The notes: generated by a model not told the origin, from the letters alone. 64,000 nucleotides of DNA from a bacterium (GCA_963693015.1 OY843748.1:3200395-3264394); one strand, 5' to 3'; counted from the first letter of the stretch, positions 3 through 56,474 are shown. Program-made: numbers and translations.

Positions 3-206
3 CCCATTCACTTCGCCGGCGAGCACGCATCGGGTCATCGGGGCTGGATGCAGGGCGCCTTCGAGTCGGGCCTGCGGGCTGCCAAGGAGATCGATGCGAC
101 GGTGACCGGGGAGCGCGCCTCACGCGCGACCGTGGCCATCCCGCGGCGGCAGATGTTGCGCCGTATTGCGGGCATCCCGAATGTGCCGGAATGGCTGTTG
201 CCCTGA
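3..206 (+). CDS. Flavin-containing amine oxidase, C-terminal fragment (gene enters from upstream of window)
   Basis: Frame 3 translates PIHFAGEHASGHRGWMQGAFESGLRAAKEIDATV... to a TGA at 204-206. This is the typical C-terminal FAD-binding segment of amine oxidases / protoporphyrinogen oxidase-like enzymes. Confidence 0.7.
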   Translation, partial: PIHFAGEHASGHRGWMQGAFESGLRAAKEIDATVTGERASRATVAIPRRQMLRRIAGIPNVPEWLLP

Positions 207-340
207 GCCGTCACCGCTGAGCCGTCTCAAGGTGAGTGTGTGCCGTAAAAAAGGTAAGCGCGAACCGGCCCGCGCCCGAGGCGCCGGCGCCGATCAATAC
301 ATTGCTTCATATCATGAAAACACTTGTTTGACCGATCGGT

Positions 341-544
341 TCATTCTTCTTGGGTGTCCGATCGCTGCAAATCATCGGCCGTAATCACCCGCCGGGCCGG
401 ATAGCGCACGTACTTCCGTCCCGAATCGGCTTGTTGTTCTCTGACTTGCCTGAAGATCTTCTTGAGGTCGTATCCGCACTGAGCGGCAAGTTCGTCCCGT
501 ATGGCACGAACTTCTGCCACGATAGGATCATCTTTCATCGTCAA
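341..544 (-). CDS. Small hypothetical protein (65-67 aa) downstream of the PIN remnant; possible toxin-antitoxin partner
   Basis: ORF MTMKDDPIVAEVRAIRDELAAQCGYDLKKIFRQVREQQ... with a TTG/ATG start. It overlaps the 3' end of the PIN-like ORF. No family recognised. Confidence 0.35.
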   Translation of the reverse strand: MTMKDDPIVAEVRAIRDELAAQCGYDLKKIFRQVREQQADSGRKYVRYPARRVITADDLQRSDTQEE

Positions 545-881
545 TGTCCTCCATCAGTTCTTCAGGGGTACAGATTACAGGAGATTCGAGACCAGCCTGC
601 CGACAGACGGATTCAATGCTCAACCGTGTCGCCGCGTTGGCGATATGTCGGAAATTCCAGGTGACAAGATACTCGATTCCGTTGACCGCGGCGATGGCGA
701 CGTGCAAGGCGTCTCGCGTCGCGACTTCAGGCAGGGCGCCGGCTTCTAACAGGTTTTCGGCCAATTCCAAGGCCTCCTCGGTAGCGCAAGAGACGCAAGT
801 GAAGCCAGCATGACGGTACGGTCGCCGGCCGCGCTGTCAGATAGCTGATGACCGTAGTCTCGACGTACACACGTGGTTTCA
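528..881 (-). pseudogene. PIN-domain (VapC-like) toxin, frameshifted
   Basis: The N-terminal MKPRVYVETTVISYLTARP (ATG at about 881) is in one frame. The C-terminal half (...DALHVAIAAVNGIEYLVTWNFRHIAN..., ORF 528-770) is in another frame, with a stop at 837-839 between them. Both halves match conserved PIN motifs. Confidence 0.55.
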
Positions 882-1202
882 TCTTGTATCCACCCATTCA
901 CCCCCGAAACACCTTCATCCCCTCGTCTCCCAGGTGATTGATTACCTTCACCGCGGTCCGGCAAGGTAATTGATCATAAACGTACGAACGAACATGATCG
1001 GCAAGACAGCCTGTTTCGCGAGGGCGTTCAAAAAGAAGGCGCACCAACCGGTCCAATCGTTATCTCGAGATACCGCCAGCAGCCTTTCATAGTATTCTTC
1101 CCTGTGAGCCTCGAAATACTCGCTTATTTAGAAATCGGGATGATTGATAATCTTGCGTCTAAAGAGGAGGCAATTACATCGAAAGGCAAACAAGATTGGA
1201 TT

Positions 1203-1745
1203 TTATAAATCAAAGTTGGCTTTCAGGTAGTCGGTGAGGGCGTCTTCCACCCGGTCGCGTATGGCATTGCGCACGAAGCCGGTGGACTTTGTGTTGTCTT
1301 TACCGTACGTCCCAATACTGCCGTATCGGTATGGATTATGGTACATCAAAAACCGTTGCGTCTCGCCCGATCGTTCTATCGAAACGTATTCAGCGAATCC
1401 TACGTTTACACAGTATAGAAACGGTGGTTCTTCATCGCGGTCACAAAGCACTTCGACCCTTAACCAAAAGCCGGATTTCGCCGACCTGGCTAAACCAGCC
1501 ACAAAGGCCGTACTCCGCTTCAGGCGCGCCCGCACAAGCAATCCGTCAATCATCTCGTCGATAGACTTCTTCGTAAAAGGACACTTCCCGTACTGTTTGT
1601 AATCAACATGTAACGTGTTGGGGTTTTCCACCTTCAACGGCGACGGGAGGTTCTCAGTCTGCCCAGATATAGTTTCTGAGTAACCCAAGAACGTGGCTAC
1701 CAGTAGCATCATGGATAGAAGTGATAAACCGCTTTTCTGTTTCAT
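1203..1745 (-). CDS. Secreted hypothetical protein (signal peptide) in a low-GC islet
   Basis: 180-aa ORF with an N-terminal hydrophobic signal (MKQKSGLSLLSMMLLVATFLG). AT-rich relative to its surroundings. Lies 47 nt downstream of the 380-aa gene. Confidence 0.5.
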   Translation of the reverse strand: MKQKSGLSLLSMMLLVATFLGYSETISGQTENLPSPLKVENPNTLHVDYKQYGKCPFTKKSIDEMIDGLLVRARLKRSTAFVAGLARSAKSGFWLRVEVLCDRDEEPPFLYCVNVGFAEYVSIERSGETQRFLMYHNPYRYGSIGTYGKDNTKSTGFVRNAIRDRVEDALTDYLKANFDL

Positions 1746-1792
1746 TCACGTTCTCCTTGTACCTTTAGAACGGTTAATTTTGGATTTTCTAC

Positions 1793-2935
1793 TCATTCCA
1801 GGCCTGTGTGCTTCCGGGCCAGATAGCTGGCAAAGGATGCGCAGGCGCCCAGCATGAACACCGCTTCGTCCATACCCACATCGGCGTCGTCTAGGTCCAG
1901 TCGCGCGTGACGAATGCCCTGTTCGTCCGAAGTGTATCCATACAGGTTGCTGAACGCTTTCTTAAGCGCCGGGTGGAGTCTGCCATGCTTCTCAATCGAC
2001 GCGAGGGCTGGTTCTAGTGTTTTCTTGGCGTGTTTTTGGGTGCCATCGGGGTCGAACTGTCGCGCCACGGACTCCACAGCGTGTATGCTTTCCCGGACGC
2101 TATCGGCCCAGTCACCTCGGTTGATGCACTCGGAGGCTGCTCGGAGGTGGGTCGTGCCGGCGTCCAAACCGTTCTGGCGTAGCGTCTGTAACGAACAGAC
2201 GATGGCGTTTCCTTCTTCTTCAGTCACGGCCGGTATGATGGTTGGCGGAGTTTCCATATCTATAGTATAAGCCAATCTACAATCAGCAAACACCTGCTTC
2301 ATCGAGGCAATGACCTCACTCGGGCACTTTGGGTGTCGTAGGATGTATTGAACCATATCAAAGACTTTGTGGAACGGAAGCGTTTCTAAGGAACGTTTTA
2401 GTTCACCGGTAACATGGTTAAATCCACTATTCAACTCATCTAGGGGCTCTTCTCCACGACGGGTATATCTCAGTTGTTGTATGCGGTTATGTATCTGGTT
2501 CTTCCACTTATCCAAAGGACGATTATCGTGATAGATATGCTTGTCTTTTAAAGCTACTTCCCAGTCTCCACCGATTATGTATCCTAAAGTATCACCCAGA
2601 TTAACAACAGGCACTCTGGACTGCTCGATTGAAGCGTAGAGAACATTGTATATCCTCGTCCTCGCATTTTCAGGCAACTCTTTCAGCTTCAGCACCCCGG
2701 GTATGTCTTCGTAACCTCGGGCCTGCGAAAAACTCAAGCTTCTCGGATCACGAACTGCCTCTGCCGTTCCGTTCTCACCAGGTTTCTCACCTGCATGTTC
2801 CTTCGCCGTCGTGGACATGGCAACTTCTACGGCCCGCTGACGTGCGCGCTTAGCAGCTCTGTGCATGGCGGCCTCAGCACCGATGAAATCCGGGTCGCGC
2901 GATGTTTTATCTGGCTTCAGGCTCTCTGAACTCAT
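1793..2935 (-). CDS. Hypothetical 380-aa protein translationally coupled to a zeta-like kinase (disordered N-terminus, helical C-terminal domain; possible Abi/HEPN-like effector or antitoxin)
   Basis: Long ORF whose ATG overlaps the stop of the upstream kinase gene (ATGA, 2932-2935). Lower GC. No canonical Rx4-6H motif was found. Confidence 0.55.
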   Translation of the reverse strand: MSSESLKPDKTSRDPDFIGAEAAMHRAAKRARQRAVEVAMSTTAKEHAGEKPGENGTAEAVRDPRSLSFSQARGYEDIPGVLKLKELPENARTRIYNVLYASIEQSRVPVVNLGDTLGYIIGGDWEVALKDKHIYHDNRPLDKWKNQIHNRIQQLRYTRRGEEPLDELNSGFNHVTGELKRSLETLPFHKVFDMVQYILRHPKCPSEVIASMKQVFADCRLAYTIDMETPPTIIPAVTEEEGNAIVCSLQTLRQNGLDAGTTHLRAASECINRGDWADSVRESIHAVESVARQFDPDGTQKHAKKTLEPALASIEKHGRLHPALKKAFSNLYGYTSDEQGIRHARLDLDDADVGMDEAVFMLGACASFASYLARKHTGLE

Positions 2936-3462
2936 CTCTGACTCATCTCCTCCAGCAGTTTCGGCTCATCACCTGAATTGTCGTATAAAGCCCATTCATC
3001 GACGAGGTCGCGATAAACCTGCACGAAGTTGTTCCATCCGGCATCGAAACGTCTGCGAATCACCGACTCGGGCACGTCGTGCCCTCCTTCGGATACACGC
3101 TGTGCAACGCGGGCGACTGCTGCTTCAGGGTTCGGCAAACGGAGGAAGAACAGCTTGATACGATAACCTTGATCCTGCCAGCGTTTAATCCAACGGGCAT
3201 AGCCGCGTCCACTCAACGTCGTCTCGAAGGCGAAACTGTGGCCTTTATGTACATGGTCGTGAATCTGTCTCAACATCATCCGGCCAGCCTGTACAGTGAT
3301 CGTGTTCGGGCGAAACGGATTCAGTCCTGCCGCGATGAGATCAGCGTTGACGAAGATGGGACAATTCGCCTCGTTGGGCAGAAATTCGGTAGCGAACGTC
3401 GTCTTGCCCGCACCGTTCGGACCGGCAATCACGAATATCTTCTTTTCGGTCGAGTTCGACAA
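2932..3462 (-). CDS. Zeta-toxin-family P-loop kinase (short, 176 aa)
   Basis: Walker A motif IAGPNGAGKTT. C-terminal ...GGHDVPESVIRRRF motif, which I recall as characteristic of zeta/PezT-type kinases. Confidence 0.7.
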   Translation of the reverse strand: MSNSTEKKIFVIAGPNGAGKTTFATEFLPNEANCPIFVNADLIAAGLNPFRPNTITVQAGRMMLRQIHDHVHKGHSFAFETTLSGRGYARWIKRWQDQGYRIKLFFLRLPNPEAAVARVAQRVSEGGHDVPESVIRRRFDAGWNNFVQVYRDLVDEWALYDNSGDEPKLLEEMSQR

Positions 3463-3798
3463 ACGCTGGCCAAATCCTGTCAGGTCTCTACTTACTACCT
3501 CGAGGTTACTGATCCTATAGGCTTGTCGTTAGTTCCTCATGTCGTTCGCCCTGCTGCAGTTCTGAGCGTCCGGTACGAAACCCACGGTTAATTTAAGTTT
3601 TTCACCTGGTTTGTCAATTCTGTCAACCGGTCTCCTTGCAGCGGACCGACCCGCTTTCTGACCTTGGTAAATGCGGATCGCCCCGCTTCCTGATACTGGA
3701 TCTTGCTGAACGAAAGCTGTTCCGCACTATCGTATCATACTCGTCTGTATCGTCGGCTCTAAATGTGATGTTCTTCACGATCAAATCCTCTTCATGAC

Positions 3799-3849: not shown

Positions 3850-4089
3850 ATGAAATCCAAGATCGCTATCACATTGGACGAGGAAATCGTCGAGCAACTC
3901 GACTATCTGGTTATGCAGCAGTCATACAAAAACAGAAGCCAGGCGATTGAAGAAGCCGTGTTAGAAAAGCTCCATCGACTCAAGCGGAGCCGTCTGGCAC
4001 GGGAATGCGCTAAACTGGAACCTGTTGTGGAGCAGGAGTTGGCTGAAGAAGGACTCCGGGAGGACATGGATATTTGGCCCGAATATTGA
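3850..4089 (+). CDS. mazE: MazE/CopG-like ribbon-helix-helix antitoxin
   Basis: 79-aa product MKSKIAITLDEEIVEQLDYL... with an RHH-type N-terminus. Overlaps the mazF start. Confidence 0.75.
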   Translation: MKSKIAITLDEEIVEQLDYLVMQQSYKNRSQAIEEAVLEKLHRLKRSRLARECAKLEPVVEQELAEEGLREDMDIWPEY

Positions 4090-4412
4090 GGGGAGAAATC
4101 CGCTGGGCCGACCTGAGTCCCACCCGAGGCCAGGAACAGGCTGGTCGACGCCCCGTACTTATCCTGAGCCATGAAGTCTTCAACCAGCGTTCCGGTACGG
4201 TAATCGCCATGGCGATCACAGGGCAGCCTCAACGAGCGGGTTTCCCGTTGACGCTCCCTCTGGATTCGAAAGATCTGCCCAGGCAATCCTGGGTCAAGAT
4301 CGGACAGATTCGAACCCTTTCGGTAGACCGAATCGGTCAAGTCCTGGGTCATTCAACCCCGGAAGAAATGGAACGGACCATCGAAGGGTTGTACGAAATC
4401 ATTGGACCTTGA
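4074..4412 (+). CDS. mazF: MazF/PemK family endoribonuclease toxin
   Basis: LRGEIRWADLSPTRGQEQAGRRPVLILS matches the MazF/PemK N-terminal signature (RGDIYxxDLxPxxGxEQxxxRPxLVxS). Confidence 0.85.
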   Translation: MARILRGEIRWADLSPTRGQEQAGRRPVLILSHEVFNQRSGTVIAMAITGQPQRAGFPLTLPLDSKDLPRQSWVKIGQIRTLSVDRIGQVLGHSTPEEMERTIEGLYEIIGP

Positions 4413-51897: not shown

Positions 51898-52025
51898 GGT
51901 GCTAGATAGATCCAGAGGTTACATACTGTTTCAAGTATAGTGCACAACATAGAGAAGCCGGCGGCGTCTACATGTTTTGACTTCAAAGTTGATATCCGTC
52001 GCACAACAGATCGATATCGTGTGAA

Positions 52026-54233
52026 ATGATAGAAAAACAATTCGATGTGCCCTTTATTGCGAACTTGGCACTAAGAGAAAAACAGATTCAGCAGAACTAC
52101 CGCCCCGTCATCGCCGTCCACAAGTGGTTTGCTCGCCGTCCTGGTACGCTCTTCCGAGGACTTTTGCTATCCGAATTCGTAGACAAGCCTCTAAAAGAAG
52201 CTTTTTACAAAGCAAACGATCTTGCAGGTCGTAATGTCGCCGATCCATTCATGGGTGGCGGTACGCCTATCCTGGAAGCCAATCGTATCGGTTGCAATGT
52301 CACAGGATTCGACATTAACCCAATGTCGTACTGGATCGTTAAGCAGGAAATCGAACCTCTGGATCTTTCGTCCTATGCAGAAGCAACGGAGTCCCTTCGT
52401 GCCAAATTGGAAAAAGAAATCGGACCGCTATACAGAACGCGATGTACTCTTTGTGGGTCAGATTCTGCCCATTTAAAATATGCTCTCTGGGTGAAAGTTA
52501 TACCCTGTAACAAGTGTGGAGAAGATGTGGAATTGTATCCCGGTTACCTGCTTTCCACAAACTCCAGGCATCCCCAAAACGTCTTTATATGTTCCTCTTG
52601 CGGGGAACTTACTGAGACCAGCGATCGAAGAGCACCCGGTCGCTGTAGCAGTTGTGCTGAGCAACTGACATCGATTGGTCGCGCAAAACGTAACCGATGT
52701 AGATGTTCGTCCTGTGGTTTCGAAAATCGTTATCCCGACAGTCGTCACGGTCCACCAAAACACAATCTTTTTGCTATTGAGTATCATTGTCCAAGGTGCA
52801 AACCATCCCACGTTGGCAGGTTCTTCAAGAAACCTGACAATGAAGATTTAGAACGGATTAAGACAGCTCAAGCACGTTGGTCAAATACACAGTCCAGATT
52901 TGTTCCTGACGATAAGATTCCAAGTGGAGACGAGTCGAGTCGCCTACACCGATGGGGTTACACTCATTATCGTGATATGTTTAATAGCCGACAACTACTG
53001 GGCTTGGAGTTATCCGCCACCATAATCTCAAATACGCCCGACGAACGAATACGCGACGCACTGGCAACAAATCTATCCGACTTGCTCAGATACCAGAATA
53101 TGTTGTGCCGTTACGATACGATGGCGTTGAAATCATTGGACATTTTCTCCGTACACGGTTTTCCAGTTGGTCTTATTCAATGCGAATCGAATTTTCTGGG
53201 GATCATGCCCCCGGGACGTAATACCTGTTTGGGCAGTGGAGGTTGGGCCAACATCATCGAGAAGTTCAAGAAAGCGAAATCTTACTGCGACCATCCATTT
53301 GAAGTCAGATACGAGGGCCGATCAAAGAAGATCGTTCCGGTAAACGGCGAATGGATCGGAGGTCGTTCCGATGTAGGCGACGACCAATCCTCACGTAGAA
53401 TCGATATTTCGTGCAAAGATGCGTCATCGTCCAAACTGCCCAACGCTTCATTGGATGCGGTAGTCACCGATCCTCCCTATTTTGACAATGTCCAGTACGC
53501 CGAACTTATGGATTTTTGTTATGTCTGGTTAAGGAAACTAGTGGGAGAAACCTCAAAAGCATTCAACGCCGCTTCGACACGCTCACCAGATGAGTTGACC
53601 GGCAATGTAGACATGGGACGTGGGATCGACCATTTCACTGAAGGGCTGTCTGCCGTTTTCCAGCATATGGGGAAGGCACTGAAACCCGAGTCTCCCATGG
53701 CGTTTACTTACCACCATAATGAGATCGAAGCATACTATCCCGTAGCCGTGGCTATCCTTGATGCCGGACTGACCTGTTCGGCTTCACTTCCTTGTCCGGC
53801 CGAAATGGGTGCTTCCATACATATTAACGCCACCGGCTCCTCAGTTGTCGATACGATATTTGTGTGCCGAAAAAAGGGGTCCATGCAACGGAGGTGGCTG
53901 GCGGACTCGCCTGATGAATTAGCACGCATTGTGAAGGAAGACTTGAACCAACTAACCCTTGGAAACTTCAATCCGACAAATGGCGATATAAAATGTATCG
54001 CGTACGGGCACTTGATCCGATTGGCTATCTGGAATCTGCGCAACGAGTGGAACAAACACGATTCAACGGTAAAGCGGATTGCAAAAGTAGCGGATTGGTT
54101 TCATAGTTTTGGTGGCGGGGCGGTTATTGAAAAATGCATAGAAAACATAGGAACCACTGAAGAACTTACTTTGTTTTCAGTGCATGAAACCACAACGGAG
54201 TATGGAAGCGAGATGGTCGATGTACCCTTTTGA
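52026..54233 (+). CDS. DUF1156-type DNA methyltransferase (N6A/N4C class with DPPY motif and Cys-rich Zn-ribbon insertions)
   Basis: N-terminal ADPFMGGGTPILEA (an FxGxG-like SAM motif), multiple CxxC pairs, then VVTDPPYFDNVQYAELMDF (motif IV). Low GC (roughly 40-45%). Confidence 0.75.
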   Translation: MIEKQFDVPFIANLALREKQIQQNYRPVIAVHKWFARRPGTLFRGLLLSEFVDKPLKEAFYKANDLAGRNVADPFMGGGTPILEANRIGCNVTGFDINPMSYWIVKQEIEPLDLSSYAEATESLRAKLEKEIGPLYRTRCTLCGSDSAHLKYALWVKVIPCNKCGEDVELYPGYLLSTNSRHPQNVFICSSCGELTETSDRRAPGRCSSCAEQLTSIGRAKRNRCRCSSCGFENRYPDSRHGPPKHNLFAIEYHCPRCKPSHVGRFFKKPDNEDLERIKTAQARWSNTQSRFVPDDKIPSGDESSRLHRWGYTHYRDMFNSRQLLGLELSATIISNTPDERIRDALATNLSDLLRYQNMLCRYDTMALKSLDIFSVHGFPVGLIQCESNFLGIMPPGRNTCLGSGGWANIIEKFKKAKSYCDHPFEVRYEGRSKKIVPVNGEWIGGRSDVGDDQSSRRIDISCKDASSSKLPNASLDAVVTDPPYFDNVQYAELMDFCYVWLRKLVGETSKAFNAASTRSPDELTGNVDMGRGIDHFTEGLSAVFQHMGKALKPESPMAFTYHHNEIEAYYPVAVAILDAGLTCSASLPCPAEMGASIHINATGSSVVDTIFVCRKKGSMQRRWLADSPDELARIVKEDLNQLTLGNFNPTNGDIKCIAYGHLIRLAIWNLRNEWNKHDSTVKRIAKVADWFHSFGGGAVIEKCIENIGTTEELTLFSVHETTTEYGSEMVDVPF

Positions 54234-55245
54234 AGTCGAATACGATGAAATCCACGAGAATCCCGATCGCTATGTAGATGCTGTATTCTCCTGCCTGGGA
54301 TCGGAATTCCTCGTGTTACCCAAAGGCGATGGTTTCGTCGAGTATCCTGTGTTCGAGCGCGGATACGAAGCGTTGAAAATCGCCACAGATGGCTTTACAG
54401 AAATCGAGCCAGACAGGATACTTCCCGTCATCATTTCTAAACCAATTGCAATTGTAGTTCTGAGGGCTATGCTTGGTTTCACACCCCCTGAATGGGGCTA
54501 TGTGACGACGCAAAGCACCGGAATCGATGTATCGCAACAGTTTATCCGATCGCTTGACAGAAAAGTCCGGCTGAATCCGGAATCCGAACTCAACCCGAAT
54601 GGTGTTACAGTAGATCGACTCAATGCCATGGTTCAAACAGCATGTCAATTACTGAAGTCAAAGACTCCCAATACACGAGAAGACCAATTGCATAGATTGG
54701 ATAAGGCTGATACGAGGCAAGGGGGCGAGGGCATTCAGCACCTATCCATGATGGGTGTCCCCTATGCCATGCTTCTATATGAACGATTTCTTGGAAGGCC
54801 CTTTGCTGGACACCGAGATTCCGTAAGTGAACTCATTGGCGATAGTCTTGAGTCGGCCATTGAGGATGTTCTTGTACAGGCTGGGATCAGCTACCGTAAA
54901 ACAGGACGCGCAGAGAAAATCGAGGGATTTGATCAGGCTCCTGACTTTATTATCCCGAGCGAATACAATCCTGTGGTCATCATCGAGGCGAAGATAACCG
55001 AGGACGACGGAACAGCCCGAGACAAGGTAACACGGATTCAACATCTTGGTGAACTGAGCGTCGCTGGTATTTCGACACGTGAACCGAGATTTCAGGTGAT
55101 AGCCTGTATTGGCGGTCGTGGTTTCGGAGTACGCCGTGAGGATATGAAGAAGTTGATAACCGCGACGAGGGGAAAGGTGTTTACAGCCAATACATTGAAC
55201 CAACTTGTCGATTGTACCCTACTTCGAGAATTCAGGAGTCGATAG
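54184..55245 (+). CDS. PD-(D/E)xK nuclease-like protein (candidate restriction endonuclease partner of the DUF1156 methyltransferase)
   Basis: ...QAPDFIIPSEYNPVVIIEAKITEDDG... fits the PD...(D/E)xK core. Three alternative ATG starts (54184, 54202, 54220) all overlap the methyltransferase stop at 54231-54233. Low GC. Confidence 0.55.
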   Translation: MKPQRSMEARWSMYPFEVEYDEIHENPDRYVDAVFSCLGSEFLVLPKGDGFVEYPVFERGYEALKIATDGFTEIEPDRILPVIISKPIAIVVLRAMLGFTPPEWGYVTTQSTGIDVSQQFIRSLDRKVRLNPESELNPNGVTVDRLNAMVQTACQLLKSKTPNTREDQLHRLDKADTRQGGEGIQHLSMMGVPYAMLLYERFLGRPFAGHRDSVSELIGDSLESAIEDVLVQAGISYRKTGRAEKIEGFDQAPDFIIPSEYNPVVIIEAKITEDDGTARDKVTRIQHLGELSVAGISTREPRFQVIACIGGRGFGVRREDMKKLITATRGKVFTANTLNQLVDCTLLREFRSR

Positions 55246-55276
55246 TTACACCGATATAGCCACCTATTACCGTAGA

Positions 55277-56266
55277 GATTCCTCAATGACTCAGCCTCGC
55301 AAACATCACTATCTGCCTCGATTCTATCTTGGAGGATTCTCAGCCAACAGTCGATCATTAAGCCAGATCGAAAAGTCAACCGGTCGAAGTTTTGTTTGTT
55401 CACTAAGAGATGTTGCAAGCATTAAAGATTATCACCGTCTCGACAAAGGCAGCACGGAAGATTCATTTGAACTAGAAAAGCACCTTGGCTCAATAGAAGG
55501 CAGGCTAGCTCGTGCCCTACGCGAAGTTTTCCAGCACGGATTAACCAATACAACTTTAACTGTTCGGTTGGTAGAACTGGTTTCATTGTTACGATTGCGT
55601 GTGCCGGCAGTTAAAACACAGATCGAAAACACCATTCGCCAAATCGCTAGAAGTTCCTCACTGCTCTTACATAGTACACGGCAGATAAAATCTACAAGCC
55701 CCGAGTGGCTGGAATCTTTACGGAAAGATGAAATCCCCATTAAGGTCTCCAACTCGTTTTGTCTAAGAATAATGTTTTCTCTGGCATACGATGTTGAAAT
55801 CCTTGAACTACTATACTCCATGAGACCGATTATAATCAAAACTCCAGACAACAGCAGCTTCATAACATGCGATCAACCAGTAGCAATCTATAACCCATCA
55901 GCAACATTTAGCCAAGCTGCTGGCGTGGCAATCGAAGATAGCGATACTGAAATAACACTTCCTTTGTCAAGCAATACGCTTTTGAAACTTGATTGGACAG
56001 AAGGAGATCCTATTCAAACAATCGCATCACCTGAAGAAGTTGACGAATACAATCGTAGATCTGTAATCATGGCTTCGTCATACGTTTTTTCGCCGACACC
56101 ATTTTCAACGAAAGCCGGTCAAATAGTTCACAACTACCGTCAGTACTCGGCCGGTATACAACCATCGCAATCAGTTGATTTTGGCCAATCGGTACTCTTT
56201 CGCCAGTTTTTTAGACCAGTACTGCAACAAACTCAATATAAGTCTTTTGAACATTCAGACGCTTAA
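55277..56266 (+). CDS. DUF4238 domain protein
   Basis: N-terminal HHYLPRFYLGGFS matches the DUF4238 hallmark as I recall it. Start MTQPRK at 55277; the track ORF is open from 55205. Confidence 0.7.
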   Translation, partial: DSSMTQPRKHHYLPRFYLGGFSANSRSLSQIEKSTGRSFVCSLRDVASIKDYHRLDKGSTEDSFELEKHLGSIEGRLARALREVFQHGLTNTTLTVRLVELVSLLRLRVPAVKTQIENTIRQIARSSSLLLHSTRQIKSTSPEWLESLRKDEIPIKVSNSFCLRIMFSLAYDVEILELLYSMRPIIIKTPDNSSFITCDQPVAIYNPSATFSQAAGVAIEDSDTEITLPLSSNTLLKLDWTEGDPIQTIASPEEVDEYNRRSVIMASSYVFSPTPFSTKAGQIVHNYRQYSAGIQPSQSVDFGQSVLFRQFFRPVLQQTQYKSFEHSDA

Positions 56267-56474
56267 ATAATGATGCGTCTACCACTAATGCTGGAGGCTG
56301 TTTGGGCACAGAGTTGATATTAACACACTATAGTTGATTTCGAGATTGTAGGAGATATCTCGAATGTAAAACAATTGCCGAGGGCCGGGGATTAGAGAAC
56401 TCGCACGACTCAGCAGGATGCATGGCTGCACGACTGGCGCAAGTTAAAGGGAGAAGGGGCCATTCGACTCCGAA

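Follow-up and report, generated by a model that had tools for sequence, protein, structure and literature searches.

The epsilon/zeta, PezAT and AvrRxo1 systems share one logic, the neutralisation of a kinase toxin by a small helical protein, and in AvrRxo1 the toxin gene comes first and that of its partner, ORF2, second. The zeta, PezT and AvrRxo1 chains have 240–332 residues, with a UNAG-binding region in zeta and PezT and an NAD-binding region in AvrRxo1. Shorter AAA_33-type toxins have been characterised in mycobacteria: over-expression of Rv0366c, from the Rv0366c-Rv0367c pair "PezAT-Mtb", is bacteriostatic and is rescued by the cognate antitoxin (PMC6362051), and a second such toxin, from Mycobacterium sp. 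MHSD3, has been shown to be toxic (PMC5728571). Both of these toxicity-tested proteins use an upstream ParD-like RHH antitoxin of 119–129 aa. Among defence proteins, Lactococcus AbiJ and S. aureus SadR have an AbiJ_NTD4-type N-terminal domain followed by a helical HEPN-like C-terminal domain, an architecture that Anantharaman 2013 describes as "variable NTD + HEPN" (PMC3710099), and SadR needs an R-Phi-x3-5-H motif for its RNase and defence activities (PMC13590631).

Here we describe a bacterial locus in which a 176-aa kinase of the shorter type is coupled to a 380-aa protein of the AbiJ-like type. It occupies positions 1203-3462 of a stretch of 64,000 nt (GCA_963693015.1 OY843748.1:3200395-3264394; hereafter the window). 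With moderate confidence, and on the strength of sequence comparisons, we read the kinase as a toxin that would be restrained by an antitoxin helix forming part of an Abi-type fusion protein, and such a wiring of a toxin–antitoxin pair into a phage-defence protein looks to be previously undescribed.

Layout of the locus

The kinase and partner genes (Table 1) overlap such that the kinase stop codon (TGA, 2934..2932) lies on the partner start codon (ATG, 2935..2933), which bears out the translational coupling proposed by the first-pass annotation. A GGAGGAG Shine-Dalgarno-like run lies 8–14 nt 5' of the partner ATG. The same annotation had placed the block in an AT-rich islet among toxin–antitoxin genes, and this holds: GC content is 51.8% in 1203-3462 against 61.7% in 4462-64000, and the adjoining mazE/mazF pair is recognised by Pfam (RHH_1, 1.4e-5; PemK_toxin, 1.1e-26). 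The kinase/partner block is part of a low-GC defence and toxin–antitoxin islet. On its 5' side the kinase is followed by a 387-nt intergenic region and then the divergent mazE, with no same-strand ORF upstream. One sigma-70-like match sits ~130 nt 5' of the kinase start; the consensus scan found six such sites in the region where 2.9 are expected, a number that gives no evidence of function.

Table 1. Features of the kinase/partner locus, in window coordinates.
Feature	Coordinates	Strand	Basis
Kinase ORF, 176 aa, TTG start	2932..3462	-	ORF calling
Walker A / P-loop GPNGAGKT, kinase aa 14-21	3400..3423	-	sequence; invariant in kinase alignment A3
GGHDVPESVIRRRF lid motif, kinase aa 126-139	3046..3087	-	sequence
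ATGA stop/start overlap, kinase/partner, translational coupling	2932..2935	-	sequence
Partner ORF, 380 aa	1793..2935	-	ORF calling
N-terminal extension, partner aa 1-49, motif RDPDxxGAEAAMxRAAxRARxRA; proposed kinase-binding (antitoxin-type) helix	2789..2935	-	
Variable low-complexity linker, partner aa 50-67	2735..2788	-	low pLDDT, block means 49-58
AbiJ_NTD4-type alpha+beta domain, partner aa 68-246	2198..2734	-	Pfam 28.6 bits, below cut-off 34
Helical C-terminal domain, partner aa 247-380, putative HEPN-like fold	1796..2197	-	Foldseek
SDEQGIRH loop, partner aa 336-343, at Abi_C/HEPN R-Phi-x3-5-H position	1907..1930	-	hand comparison
Third ORF, 180 aa, signal peptide	1203..1745	-	ORF calling
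Sigma-70-like promoter match TTGACA-16-TAAATT	3590..3617	-	consensus scan, 10/12 matches

The signal-peptide ORF that had been counted as the third gene of the module does lie 47 nt downstream of the partner on the same strand, and a scan of the minus strand between the block genes found nothing terminator-like, as would suit a three-gene module with the secreted protein as a functional component. Its membership is nonetheless highly improbable. Homologues of the 180-aa protein occur in 0 of 80 related loci, and the two closest relatives lack the ORF; at the related locus L002, homology to window positions 3-214 starts ~330 bp past the end of the partner gene, against a separation of ~1.6 kb in the window. 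The ORF also has its own ribosome-binding site, a AAGGAGAA run, and the lowest GC content of the block (49%), and searches of its product against Pfam, NCBIfam, PADLOC and PHROGs gave no match. The operon comprises two genes rather than three, and the 180-aa ORF lies outside it.

The kinase and its usual small partner

The description of the 176-aa product as a minimal zeta-like kinase is upheld by profile and fold comparisons. It exceeds the Pfam cut-offs both for Zeta_toxin (37.5 bits, cut-off 22.3, aa 5-149) and, with a slightly higher score, for AAA_33 (40.7 bits, cut-off 27). Its AF2 model (mean pLDDT 88; the models of kinase and partner are both of single chains) has zeta and PezT at Foldseek ranks 1-5 (E 6e-8 to 1e-7, TMq 0.70-0.78), and its top matches among solved folds are zeta (3q8x_B/1gvn_B), PezT (2p5t) and AvrRxo1-ORF1 (4z8q), with TMq 0.73-0.78 at 14-20% identity to these chains, which are all longer than the 176 aa of the window kinase.

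Both motifs that had been pointed out in this protein are present, the P-loop with its next residue (GPNGAGKTT, aa 14-22) and the lid motif GGHDVPESVIRRRF, but the GGH within the latter departs from the canonical zeta/PezT signature: its spacing would make His128 the counterpart of His122 of Rv0366c, which has been aligned to zeta Arg171 (PMC6362051). Residues G126, G127, H128 and R138 of the lid motif are invariant in kinase alignment A3, as is D41, the presumed catalytic base and, judging from the spacing in Rv0366c, probably the equivalent of zeta D67, the Asp that deprotonates the substrate. The two proteins are laid out almost alike, with 9-GPNGAGKS-16, D36, E75, R116 and H122 in Rv0366c and the P-loop at 14-21, D41, E80, R122 and H128 in the window kinase, giving offsets from the P-loop start of 27, 66, 107 and 113 in the former and 27, 66, 108 and 114 in the latter. 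Inspection by analogy with Rv0366c further shows that the UNAG-binding GTXR motif is missing (E80-T-T-L-S-G, against E116-G-T-x-R in zeta) and that zeta Arg171 is not kept, since His128 stands at the equivalent position. The Rv0366c-like toxins lack GTXR as well, belong to the same Pfam families (Zeta_toxin/AAA_33) and are of a like size class (195–197 aa). The window kinase is thus best regarded as a probable short ATP-dependent phosphotransferase of the zeta/PezT type, non-canonical and Rv0366c-like. The family of short zeta-like kinases of which it is a member is very large, with at least 8000 homologues; some of these are annotated as "AAA family ATPase", others as "zeta toxin family protein". 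Identity exceeds 70% among the top 120 matches, an unusual degree of conservation that is untypical of fast-evolving toxins and therefore counts against the toxin reading.

In nearly all members of this family the kinase gene is followed by that of a very small protein. Among 79 metagenomic loci with enough downstream sequence, 76 have a small downstream ORF (one of the 76 being an AbiJ fusion), and the encoded partner has 50-81 aa, with an Ala/Arg-rich helix at its N-terminus and a "GxGVVVxKDGxIVEE" hairpin at its C-terminus. The 4-nt kinase/partner overlap is found in 43 of 68 metagenomic loci and also at the related locus L001, at least 1529 small partners were counted, and a conjugative plasmid of Legionella carries the pair too, adjoining Tn3. 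The kinase-first gene order, previously taken for an oddity of this locus, is the rule in the kinase subfamily. No Pfam or NCBIfam model matched the small partner or its helix, and no resemblance of the helix to epsilon, PezA or ORF2 could be detected. At the window kinase there is no upstream RHH antitoxin and no antitoxin of the epsilon/PezA type; its partner lies downstream and is unrelated to the RHH proteins of the mycobacterial systems.

The fold comparisons also bring up a polynucleotide kinase, that of Clostridium thermocellum (4mde, E 1.2e-6, TMq 0.67), which ranks directly behind the zeta family and is only ~20-fold weaker than the zeta and PezT matches; Pnkp1 is the sole full-length sequence-profile match among solved structures (E = 0.028), and there is a weak PHROGs match to "polynucleotide kinase" (3.6e-5). 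The window protein could on these grounds be a polynucleotide 5'-kinase or RNA-end modifier that acts on 5'-OH ends left by the HEPN-like RNase, for example blocking or permitting repair, and not a metabolic toxin. We consider this decidedly unlikely, given that the zeta, PezT and AvrRxo1 structures come first and Pfam Zeta_toxin is above its cut-off, that in ~96% of cases the kinase has a tiny protein as its partner, and not an RNase, a ligase or a phosphatase, and that the residue pattern agrees with that of toxic Rv0366c.

The AbiJ-like partner and its N-terminal helix

The 380-aa protein, for which no known family had been recognised, is not an orphan: it combines an AbiJ_NTD4-type domain with a C-terminal domain of probable HEPN-like fold. 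The PADLOC models of PDC-S32, a bioinformatic candidate for a single-gene defence system for which a literature search found no papers, match it strongly (PDLC04997, 163.2 bits, E 2.6e-48, aa 66-376; PDLC04996, 131.5 bits). AbiJ_NTD4 scores below its Pfam cut-off in the window protein because of a lineage-specific ~25-aa insertion (alignment A1), but reaches 37-103 bits in each homologue scanned, so that the cut-off is passed at the family level. There are 2421 homologues of the partner, and its AF2 model has a mean pLDDT of 81.

For the C-terminal domain the sole compact Foldseek matches are HEPN domains, all with E > 1: 2hsb (prob 0.95, TMt 0.70), 1ufb (TMt 0.68), sacsin 3o10 and HepT 7ae8. 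Pfam Abi_C stayed below its cut-off of 24 on the isolated domain (E = 0.11, 13.1 bits) and gave no match in the scanned homologues either. A regex search of the whole partner found no Rx4-6H motif, in agreement with the first-pass annotation. At the corresponding position the partner has SDEQGIRH, of which all 120 sequences of the partner family keep R342 and H343, and the same motif recurs in a 24%-identical AbiJ-NTD4 protein of Leptospira. Hand comparison with "RNEYGDAH", as given for SadR in PMC13590631, places Ser at the position of Arg. The predicted HEPN-like domain does not have the canonical catalytic Arg, and its activity is therefore uncertain.

What the earlier reading overlooked is the N-terminus of this protein, which it had called disordered and basic. 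A conserved helix spans residues ~13-40 (residues 15-49 in the model; mean pLDDT 71-85 per 10-residue block over residues 11-40), and low confidence is confined to residues ~50-66. The first ~45 residues are, by sequence, homologous to the N-terminal helix of the kinase's small partner, whose HMM matches them with 46.8 bits (aa 1-~45); the partner thus starts with the fused N-terminal half of the protein that normally accompanies the kinase. In the fused loci this HMM match ends at model positions 37-48 of 62, and in the homologue alignments of the 80-loci set the small partner's C-terminal hairpin is missing from fused proteins. The linker that follows varies in sequence and in length among homologues, from ~15 to >80 residues. 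The conserved helix positions include no Ser, Thr or Tyr, which makes a role as phospho-acceptor unlikely. A public cluster representative that is 100% identical to the window partner has its start called at Met24, which halves the conserved helix, so automated pipelines will miss the fused architecture.

The helix and the kinase occur strictly together. Across 80 genomes, all 26 loci that have a kinase upstream carry the extension, against 3 of the 54 without one (p = 4.8e-18), which agrees with the co-conservation and coupling of the two genes proposed earlier, and the recurrence of the kinase with an extended partner in 26 of 80 independent genomes puts the arrangement beyond chance. At five loci (L011, L021, L022, L035 and L051) the kinase is fragmented or frameshifted and the helix and AbiJ body are intact; where the kinase is full-length, at 21 loci, the helix is always present. 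Decay of the kinase with the helix kept, and never the reverse, is the pattern expected of a toxin–antitoxin pair. The module is rare in viral contigs. Downstream of the module, L001 has what reads as a type III restriction-like helicase.

These observations bear on a reading in which the kinase is a regulator in the logic of type VII toxin–antitoxin systems, docking on the helix and phosphorylating the AbiJ-like protein so as to keep the HEPN-like RNase off. MntA-HepT, in which MntA AMPylates a HepT Tyr near the active site, is a HEPN toxin controlled by covalent modification and the model for this possibility. HepT/MntA complexes (6m6w, 7bxo) are among the HEPN fold matches, invariant hydroxyl residues are plentiful in the loop YGYTSDEQGIRH, with Tyr332, Tyr334, Thr335 or Ser336 beside the R342/H343 dyad as possible targets, and in one locus, L174, the helix is joined straight to the C-terminal domain alone. 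We nevertheless judge it improbable. The ancestral partner of the kinase has 50-81 aa and no effector domain, so the relation of kinase and helix is older than any HEPN domain; conservation of the YGYTSD loop is just as strong in the kinase-less two-thirds of homologues, including the Leptospira protein; the five loci that retain an intact AbiJ-like gene beside a decayed kinase would be lethal were the kinase the antidote; and the substrates of the characterised zeta-family kinases are small molecules (UNAG, NAD) rather than proteins.

Two loci carry what by sequence are unfused intermediates: in L013 a 73-aa small partner overlaps an extension-less AbiJ-like gene, and L021 has separate genes for a small partner and an AbiJ-like protein beside a decayed kinase. 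Such neighbours would also be expected if a deletion had simply joined a zeta-like toxin–antitoxin pair to an adjacent PDC-S32/AbiJ-like gene, with the two parts working independently, the pair merely stabilising the islet and the fusion having no functional meaning. The AbiJ-like protein acts alone in most genomes (54 of 80 loci), and the extension shows ~19 state changes on the tree of 120 sequences, some of them from mis-called starts, which would fit such an accident. We assign this a small probability, because the fused build is kept at 47-80% protein identity across several phyla (Vicinamibacterales, Binatia and Gammaproteobacteria among them), the helix motif shows strict conservation, the C-terminal hairpin is absent from the fused proteins, the 4-nt coupling is retained, and a second fusion, which looks independent, leads straight to the C-terminal domain. 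In the locus with this second fusion, L174, the kinase is followed by the helix joined directly to the C-terminal domain without NTD4, and in P0382 the same helix is fused to a Cys-rich C-terminal domain; both would hint at reuse of the toxin-leash principle considered below.

Proposed wiring and comparison with known systems

The reading that we favour, a kinase toxin held by a helix borrowed from its small partner, would work as follows. The small partner's helix (aa ~13-40) would have replaced the start of a stand-alone AbiJ-like protein, composed of AbiJ_NTD4 as a putative sensor and the HEPN-like C-terminal domain, with a flexible linker between. The helix would dock on the kinase and hold it inactive, as epsilon, PezA or AvrRxo1-ORF2 do with their toxins, and the kinase would thereby be tethered 1:1 to the defence protein. 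If the AbiJ-like protein were triggered, inactivated or degraded during infection, the kinase would be set free and could deliver a second, metabolic hit on top of the action of the HEPN-like domain, so that the infection is aborted. Gene structure, homologies, the joint occurrence of kinase and helix and the unfused intermediates are observed; helix–kinase binding, the toxicity of the kinase, the direction of control and the role in phage defence are all parts that we infer.

If the helix does tether and silence the kinase, an antitoxin element has been transplanted naturally onto an unrelated immune protein, a simple way for evolution to link a toxin with a phage sensor, and the family of kinases and mini-proteins (at least 8000 and at least 1529 members, respectively) would be a toxin-first toxin–antitoxin system. 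There would also be a way into the function of the AbiJ_NTD4/PDC-S32 proteins, in which the canonical catalytic motif is missing from the HEPN-like domain. A more tentative extension, possible though doubtful, is that the helix is a portable "toxin leash" whose fusion to an Abi-type sensor or effector makes a dead-man's switch guarding the defence protein: a phage that triggers, sequesters or degrades the AbiJ-like protein would free the kinase, and the cell would be killed or arrested. This, if true, would be a wiring of toxin–antitoxin systems to immunity by domain fusion, distinct from both the classical toxin–antitoxin pair and the single-protein Abi system.

One close counterpart lacking the fusion is on plasmid pSYSG of Synechocystis, in a defence island, where a kinase 63.5% identical to that of the window has the same 4-nt overlap with its partner. 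Five pSYSG genes are listed as "related to TA modules", and the kinase and 59-aa ORF match two of them by gene order (PMC4963859), probably sll8004/ssl8003. The pSYSG partner starts with EDPDxxGSEKALRRAAQRARERA, the same helix as in the window partner, and the window locus shares both the ATGA overlap and a downstream protein starting (R/E)DPDxxxAExAxxRAAxxARxxA. The 59-aa pSYSG protein stands alone and carries a C-terminal GIGVIILKDGEIVEE hairpin, whereas the window partner has no such hairpin and has its helix joined to an AbiJ-like body of ~315 aa.

That body agrees with AbiJ and SadR in its predicted order of domains and differs in having SDEQGIRH in place of the R-Phi-x3-5-H of SadR. The HEPN survey (PMC3710099), in its passages with kinase or zeta terms, and the SadR paper (PMC13590631), in those on AbiJ and the motif, describe neither a zeta-like kinase partner nor an N-terminal partner helix. 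Inclusion of a zeta-type antitoxin element within a larger polypeptide, instead of a free protein, has a precedent in EzeT of E. coli, a zeta toxin fused to its own antitoxin domain, as summarised in PMC4963859. In EzeT, according to that summary, the antitoxin domain is on the toxin itself and inhibits it in cis, whereas in the window the kinase is a separate protein and the helix sits on a third, unrelated defence protein.

The islet and the extent of its operon

The operon opens with a kinase gene whose product reads GPNGAGKTT and GGHDVPESVIRRRF, and whose TGA stop shares the four bases ATGA with the start of the partner gene. The partner ATG is preceded, at 8-14 nt, by a GGAGGAG run, and 47 nt after the partner stop begins an ORF for a signal-peptide protein (the secreted ORF), which has its own AAGGAGAA site. 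The GC content of the block is 51.8% vs 61.7% in 4462-64000. ORF calling and a GC count thus reproduce the three minus-strand ORFs, the ATGA overlap and the low-GC block of the first-pass annotation, and Pfam (RHH_1 for mazE, PemK_toxin for mazF) bears out its mazEF neighbour; PhyH and gltBD-type genes also adjoin the block. In the close relative L001, mazEF is not found at the equivalent position, and in L002 it sits at another place, so the cargo of the islet is variable.

Features of the islet, of the modelled partner protein and of a second islet (window positions, or residues where marked aa)
Feature	Position	Strand	Remarks
Kinase gene	3462..2932	-	176 aa; TTG start; ORF call
Partner gene	2935..1793	-	380 aa; ORF call
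Secreted ORF	1745..1203	-	180 aa; Sec-type signal peptide; ORF call
mazE (RHH_1) / mazF (PemK_toxin, 1.1e-26)	3850-4412	+	intact pair, divergent from the kinase operon
56-aa ORF	727-897	-	overlaps the 80-aa ORF
80-aa ORF	528-770	-	overlaps the 56-aa ORF
67-aa ORF	341-544	-	next after the 80-aa ORF
Second low-GC islet	~52000-56300	+	47% GC
Partner, long N-terminal helix	aa 15-49		AF2 model
Partner, low-confidence linker	aa ~50-66		AF2 model
Partner, alpha+beta domain	between linker and C-terminal bundle		AF2 model
Partner, C-terminal helical bundle	aa ~239-378		AF2 model

L001 and L002, the closest relatives, have partners 77-80% identical to that of the window and carry the kinase-partner pair at the same chromosomal place beside PhyH. 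Downstream of the pair, L001 has a 1071-aa ORF whose sequence suggests a type III restriction-type helicase, and in L002 sequence homologous to window 3-214 starts ~330 bp past the end of the partner gene. The secreted protein was considered as a third component, as the first-pass annotation had proposed, but tblastn found a homologue in none of 80 genome loci with partner homologues, and it is missing in L001 and L002, making a three-gene module extremely improbable. With no match in Pfam, NCBIfam, PADLOC or PHROGs, and with the lowest GC of the block (49%), the secreted ORF looks like an unrelated orphan insertion.

Within 341-897, the overlapping 56-aa and 80-aa ORFs look, by their residues, like halves of one frameshifted PIN-like toxin ('VYVETTVISYL...' / '...DALHVAIAAVNGIEYLVTWNFRHIAN'); a Pfam scan of the 80-aa ORF and of the 67-aa ORF beyond it gave no match. 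These PIN-like remnants are missing in L001 and L002. Within the second low-GC islet lie a 735-aa ORF, which contains a DPPY motif and matches DNA-methylase/DUF1156 models below threshold, and two ORFs of 353 aa each, one faintly matching EcoRII-C and the other encoding a DUF4238 protein (3.2e-30). The islet is probably another restriction/defence cassette.

A short zeta-like kinase and its small partner

The kinase matches Pfam AAA_33 (40.7 bits) and Zeta_toxin (37.5 bits), each above its cut-off. Its AF2 model (mean pLDDT 88) has as best fold matches zeta (3q8x_B, 1gvn_B), PezT (2p5t) and AvrRxo1-ORF1 (4z8q), with E 6e-8 to 3e-7 and TMq 0.73-0.78. Zeta membership was judged by Pfam and the fold search because sequence searches against solved structures were uninformative, giving no significant similarity beyond the P-loop with either the single sequence or a profile. 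The next fold match is the Clostridium thermocellum polynucleotide kinase, and the best full-length match by sequence is Pnkp1, at a marginal E = 0.028; we regard a polynucleotide-kinase role as very unlikely. PADLOC returned P-loop-level matches only, and PHROGs only weak, heterogeneous kinase/ATPase matches. A housekeeping identity was rejected, as the NCBIfam guanylate/nucleoside kinase matches (E ~0.007) are far below cut-offs and amount to P-loop noise.

A close parallel is Rv0366c, a short, non-canonical toxin with functional residues 9-GPNGAGKS-16, Asp36, Glu75, Arg116 and His122 and without the UNAG-binding GTXR (PMC6362051). The window kinase has the same pattern and spacing (14-21, D41, E80, R122, H128), and likewise lacks GTXR. 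The action of Rv0366c is bacteriostatic, and its own antitoxin relieves it (PMC6362051); a related toxin of the AAA_33 type, from Mycobacterium sp. MHSD3, shows the same behaviour (PMC5728571). Together with Pfam and the fold matches, this residue pattern upholds the earlier reading of a zeta-like kinase, with one correction: the GGH motif, taken then as diagnostic of zeta/PezT-type kinases, marks the short non-canonical subgroup and not the classical zeta/PezT kinases. At least 8000 homologues were scored, of which the best 120 are 166-206 aa long and at least 71% identical; some bear the NCBI names 'zeta toxin family protein' or 'AAA family ATPase'. Among database kinases the nearest, P0122 (92% identical), has the sequence IADPNGAGKT, with the first Gly of Walker A changed to Asp, carries W157G and D161G at other conserved positions, and may be an inactivated copy.

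The usual neighbour of this kinase is a small protein. Scanning metagenome contigs with the kinase gave 80 loci, 79 of them with enough downstream sequence, and a partner-type ORF lies directly downstream in 76 of the 79, overlapping the kinase gene by 4 nt in 43/68 loci. This partner is free and small in 75 of the 76 loci ('MTIKTHELATSKQKRDPDLINAEIALKRAAQKAREFARKAGTLVVILKDGEITEE...' is an example); an AbiJ-type fusion occurs once, at L081. Complete free ORFs, found by motif, encode 50-81 aa. Neither the small partner nor its helix, the N-terminal part, belongs to a family in Pfam or NCBIfam, and at least 1529 members came up in a profile search, of which the 120 listed are 56-81 aa long, with no Pfam domain and no informative name. 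The pair also occurs on a Legionella conjugative plasmid, beside Tn3, and on Synechocystis pSYSG, where the kinase is 63.5% identical and its gene overlaps by 4 nt that of a 59-aa 'hypothetical protein' downstream; a nucleotidyltransferase/type I R-M gene flanks the two on one side and a DUF4433/macro pair on the other. Kopfmann et al. (2016) list sll8001-ssl8005, five genes of pSYSG, as 'related to TA modules' although these fell short of their criteria (PMC4963859); from gene order, we infer that sll8004/ssl8003 are this kinase and small partner.

Fusion of the helix to an AbiJ-like protein

The first-pass annotation could match the 380-aa partner to no known family, but PADLOC PDC-S32, a candidate single-gene defence system, covers aa 66-376 (E 2.6e-48), and its homologues carry AbiJ_NTD4. 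A search of the literature for 'PDC-S32' gave no match. The partner's own AbiJ_NTD4 match (aa 68-246) scores 28.6 bits, below the cut-off of 34, because of a ~25-aa lineage-specific insertion; homologues score 37-103 bits. In its four-part AF2 model (mean pLDDT 81), the C-terminal bundle has compact Foldseek matches to HEPN proteins only (2hsb, prob 0.95, TMt 0.70; 1ufb; sacsin 3o10; HepT 7ae8), all with E > 1, an effect of the multi-domain query. The match to Abi_C, the HEPN family of AbiJ and SadR, is marginal (E = 0.11). The Rx4-6H motif is absent from the whole protein, as had been noted. Opposite 'RNEYGDAH', the essential motif of SadR (PMC13590631), the window family reads 'SDEQGIRH', with Ser at the canonical Arg, in a hand comparison for which the marginal Abi_C match is the sole support; both R342 and H343 are invariant in the partner family. 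An AbiJ-NTD4 protein of 24% identity, encoded on a Leptospira plasmid, has this loop too.

The partner's homologues fall into two length classes: ~350 aa, with a conserved N-terminal 'RDPDxxGAEAAMHRAAxRARxRA' motif and a variable linker, and ~295 aa, with neither. An HMM built from free small partners only matches the N terminus of the window partner at 46.8 bits (E 9e-11 for a nominal database of 1e6), part of this score being built in because the small ORFs were chosen by motif regex; the match reaches the RDPD cap and its flanks. In fused proteins, it ends at model positions 37-48 of 62, and by this alignment the C-terminal hairpin of the small partner is lost. The conserved helix positions (D14, P15, D16, A20, E21, A23, R26, A27, A28, A31, R32, A35) include no Ser, Thr or Tyr, which speaks for a role in binding and against one as phospho-acceptor.

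The helix and the kinase occur together strictly. Among the 80 genome loci fetched by partner alignment, mostly uncultured MAGs of Vicinamibacterales, Dehalococcoidia, Gammaproteobacteria, Binatia and other groups, an upstream kinase is present in 26 (21 full-length, 5 fragmentary), all of which have the helix; it is absent from 54, of which three have the helix (Fisher p = 4.8e-18). The two genes are thus co-conserved in 26/80 loci. A functionally neutral fusion seems unlikely to us. No locus with a full-length kinase lacks the helix (0/21), and in five loci (L011, L021, L022, L035, L051) the kinase is frameshifted or fragmentary and the helix and AbiJ body are intact. Since the kinase decays and the helix stays, the asymmetry is as expected of a toxin, which is dispensable, and an antitoxin element, which is needed for as long as the toxin persists. 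In a type VII-like scheme, phosphorylation by the kinase would silence the HEPN-like domain; these decayed kinases and the ancestral kinase partner, which has no effector, speak against such a scheme, and we consider it improbable.

Unfused arrangements also exist. At L013 (4772-5864), a complete 73-aa small partner overlaps an extension-less AbiJ-like gene, with no kinase; at L021 (4580-6646), a decayed kinase (truncated, Walker A GAEKT) and a complete small partner are followed by a retropepsin-like ORF and an AbiJ-like gene. Both loci are from Dehalococcoidia MAGs, with small partners of 73-91 aa as called, are flanked on one side by a ~1200-aa helicase and on the other by a large ORF whose sequence suggests a DUF1156-type DNA methylase, and look like the unfused precursor state. 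On a neighbour-joining tree built to test for a single fusion origin, fusion state needs 19 changes vs 31.7 expected by chance and is thus more clustered than chance, but mis-called starts confound this test. One such start is that of P0001, the cluster representative 100% identical to the window partner, called from Met24 at 357 aa so that the helix is cut in half (window 2867-2935). The second member of this cluster has the full 380 aa, and P0003 also starts at the equivalent internal Met. Such starts will hide the helix-AbiJ architecture in databases.

The helix has been joined to other proteins too. At L174 (1980-3058), a Zeta_toxin/AAA_33 gene overlaps by 4 nt the gene of P0379, a 185-aa protein in which the helix runs straight into the HEPN-like C-terminal domain and NTD4 is absent; DUF1156/DUF433 and DUF5615 genes are neighbours. 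In P0382 (L172 78-512, on a contig too short to show a kinase), a full small partner is fused to a C-terminal Cys-rich (CxxC...CxxC) domain that reads as a YgiT/MqsA-type zinc ribbon, and P0364 and P0384 have the helix motif twice, in tandem. These are the few variants in an exhaustive phmmer search with aa 1-49, whose 27 matches are mostly fragments of the same family; a word-indexed search showed no other helix fusion among its best 120 matches, all 56-81 aa.

An ORF of ~125 aa for a retropepsin-like aspartyl protease (Pfam gag-asp_proteas, 28.7 bits) lies near AbiJ-like genes in 11/80 loci (L021 5217-5594, L043 4629-4988, L059 4577-4918 and eight further loci). At two or three of these an AbiJ-like copy without the extension follows it directly, and the protease may be an alternative partner. 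Few viral contigs carry either module family (6 and 2 loci in 2.9 million contigs). Nearly all genomes with the AbiJ-like gene are uncultured MAGs; several, going by isolate names such as APA_bin, RHO bins, SB06xx bins and Candidatus Porisulfidus, may be marine-sponge symbionts.

Proposed mechanism and relation to known systems

The helix probably mediates a physical interaction between kinase and partner. In the scheme that we favour by a small measure, the kinase would be a toxin of the Rv0366c type, and the helix would neutralise it in the manner of epsilon, PezA and AvrRxo1-ORF2. The fusion would then tether the toxin to an Abi-type sensor or effector, and triggering or destruction of the AbiJ-like protein could release the kinase.

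The partner resembles AbiJ in architecture, which Anantharaman et al. (2013) give as NTD4 plus a HEPN-like domain (PMC3710099), but it lacks two of the features that define AbiJ/Abi_C members, which leaves its enzymatic activity uncertain. Keyword searches of PMC3710099, by kinase and zeta terms, and of the SadR paper, by AbiJ and motif terms, yielded neither a kinase link nor the fusion. The pair of kinase and mini-protein has already been noticed in the literature, uncharacterised (PMC4963859), and every part of the system is of a known kind: a short zeta-like kinase, an AbiJ_NTD4/HEPN-like protein and toxin-antitoxin logic.
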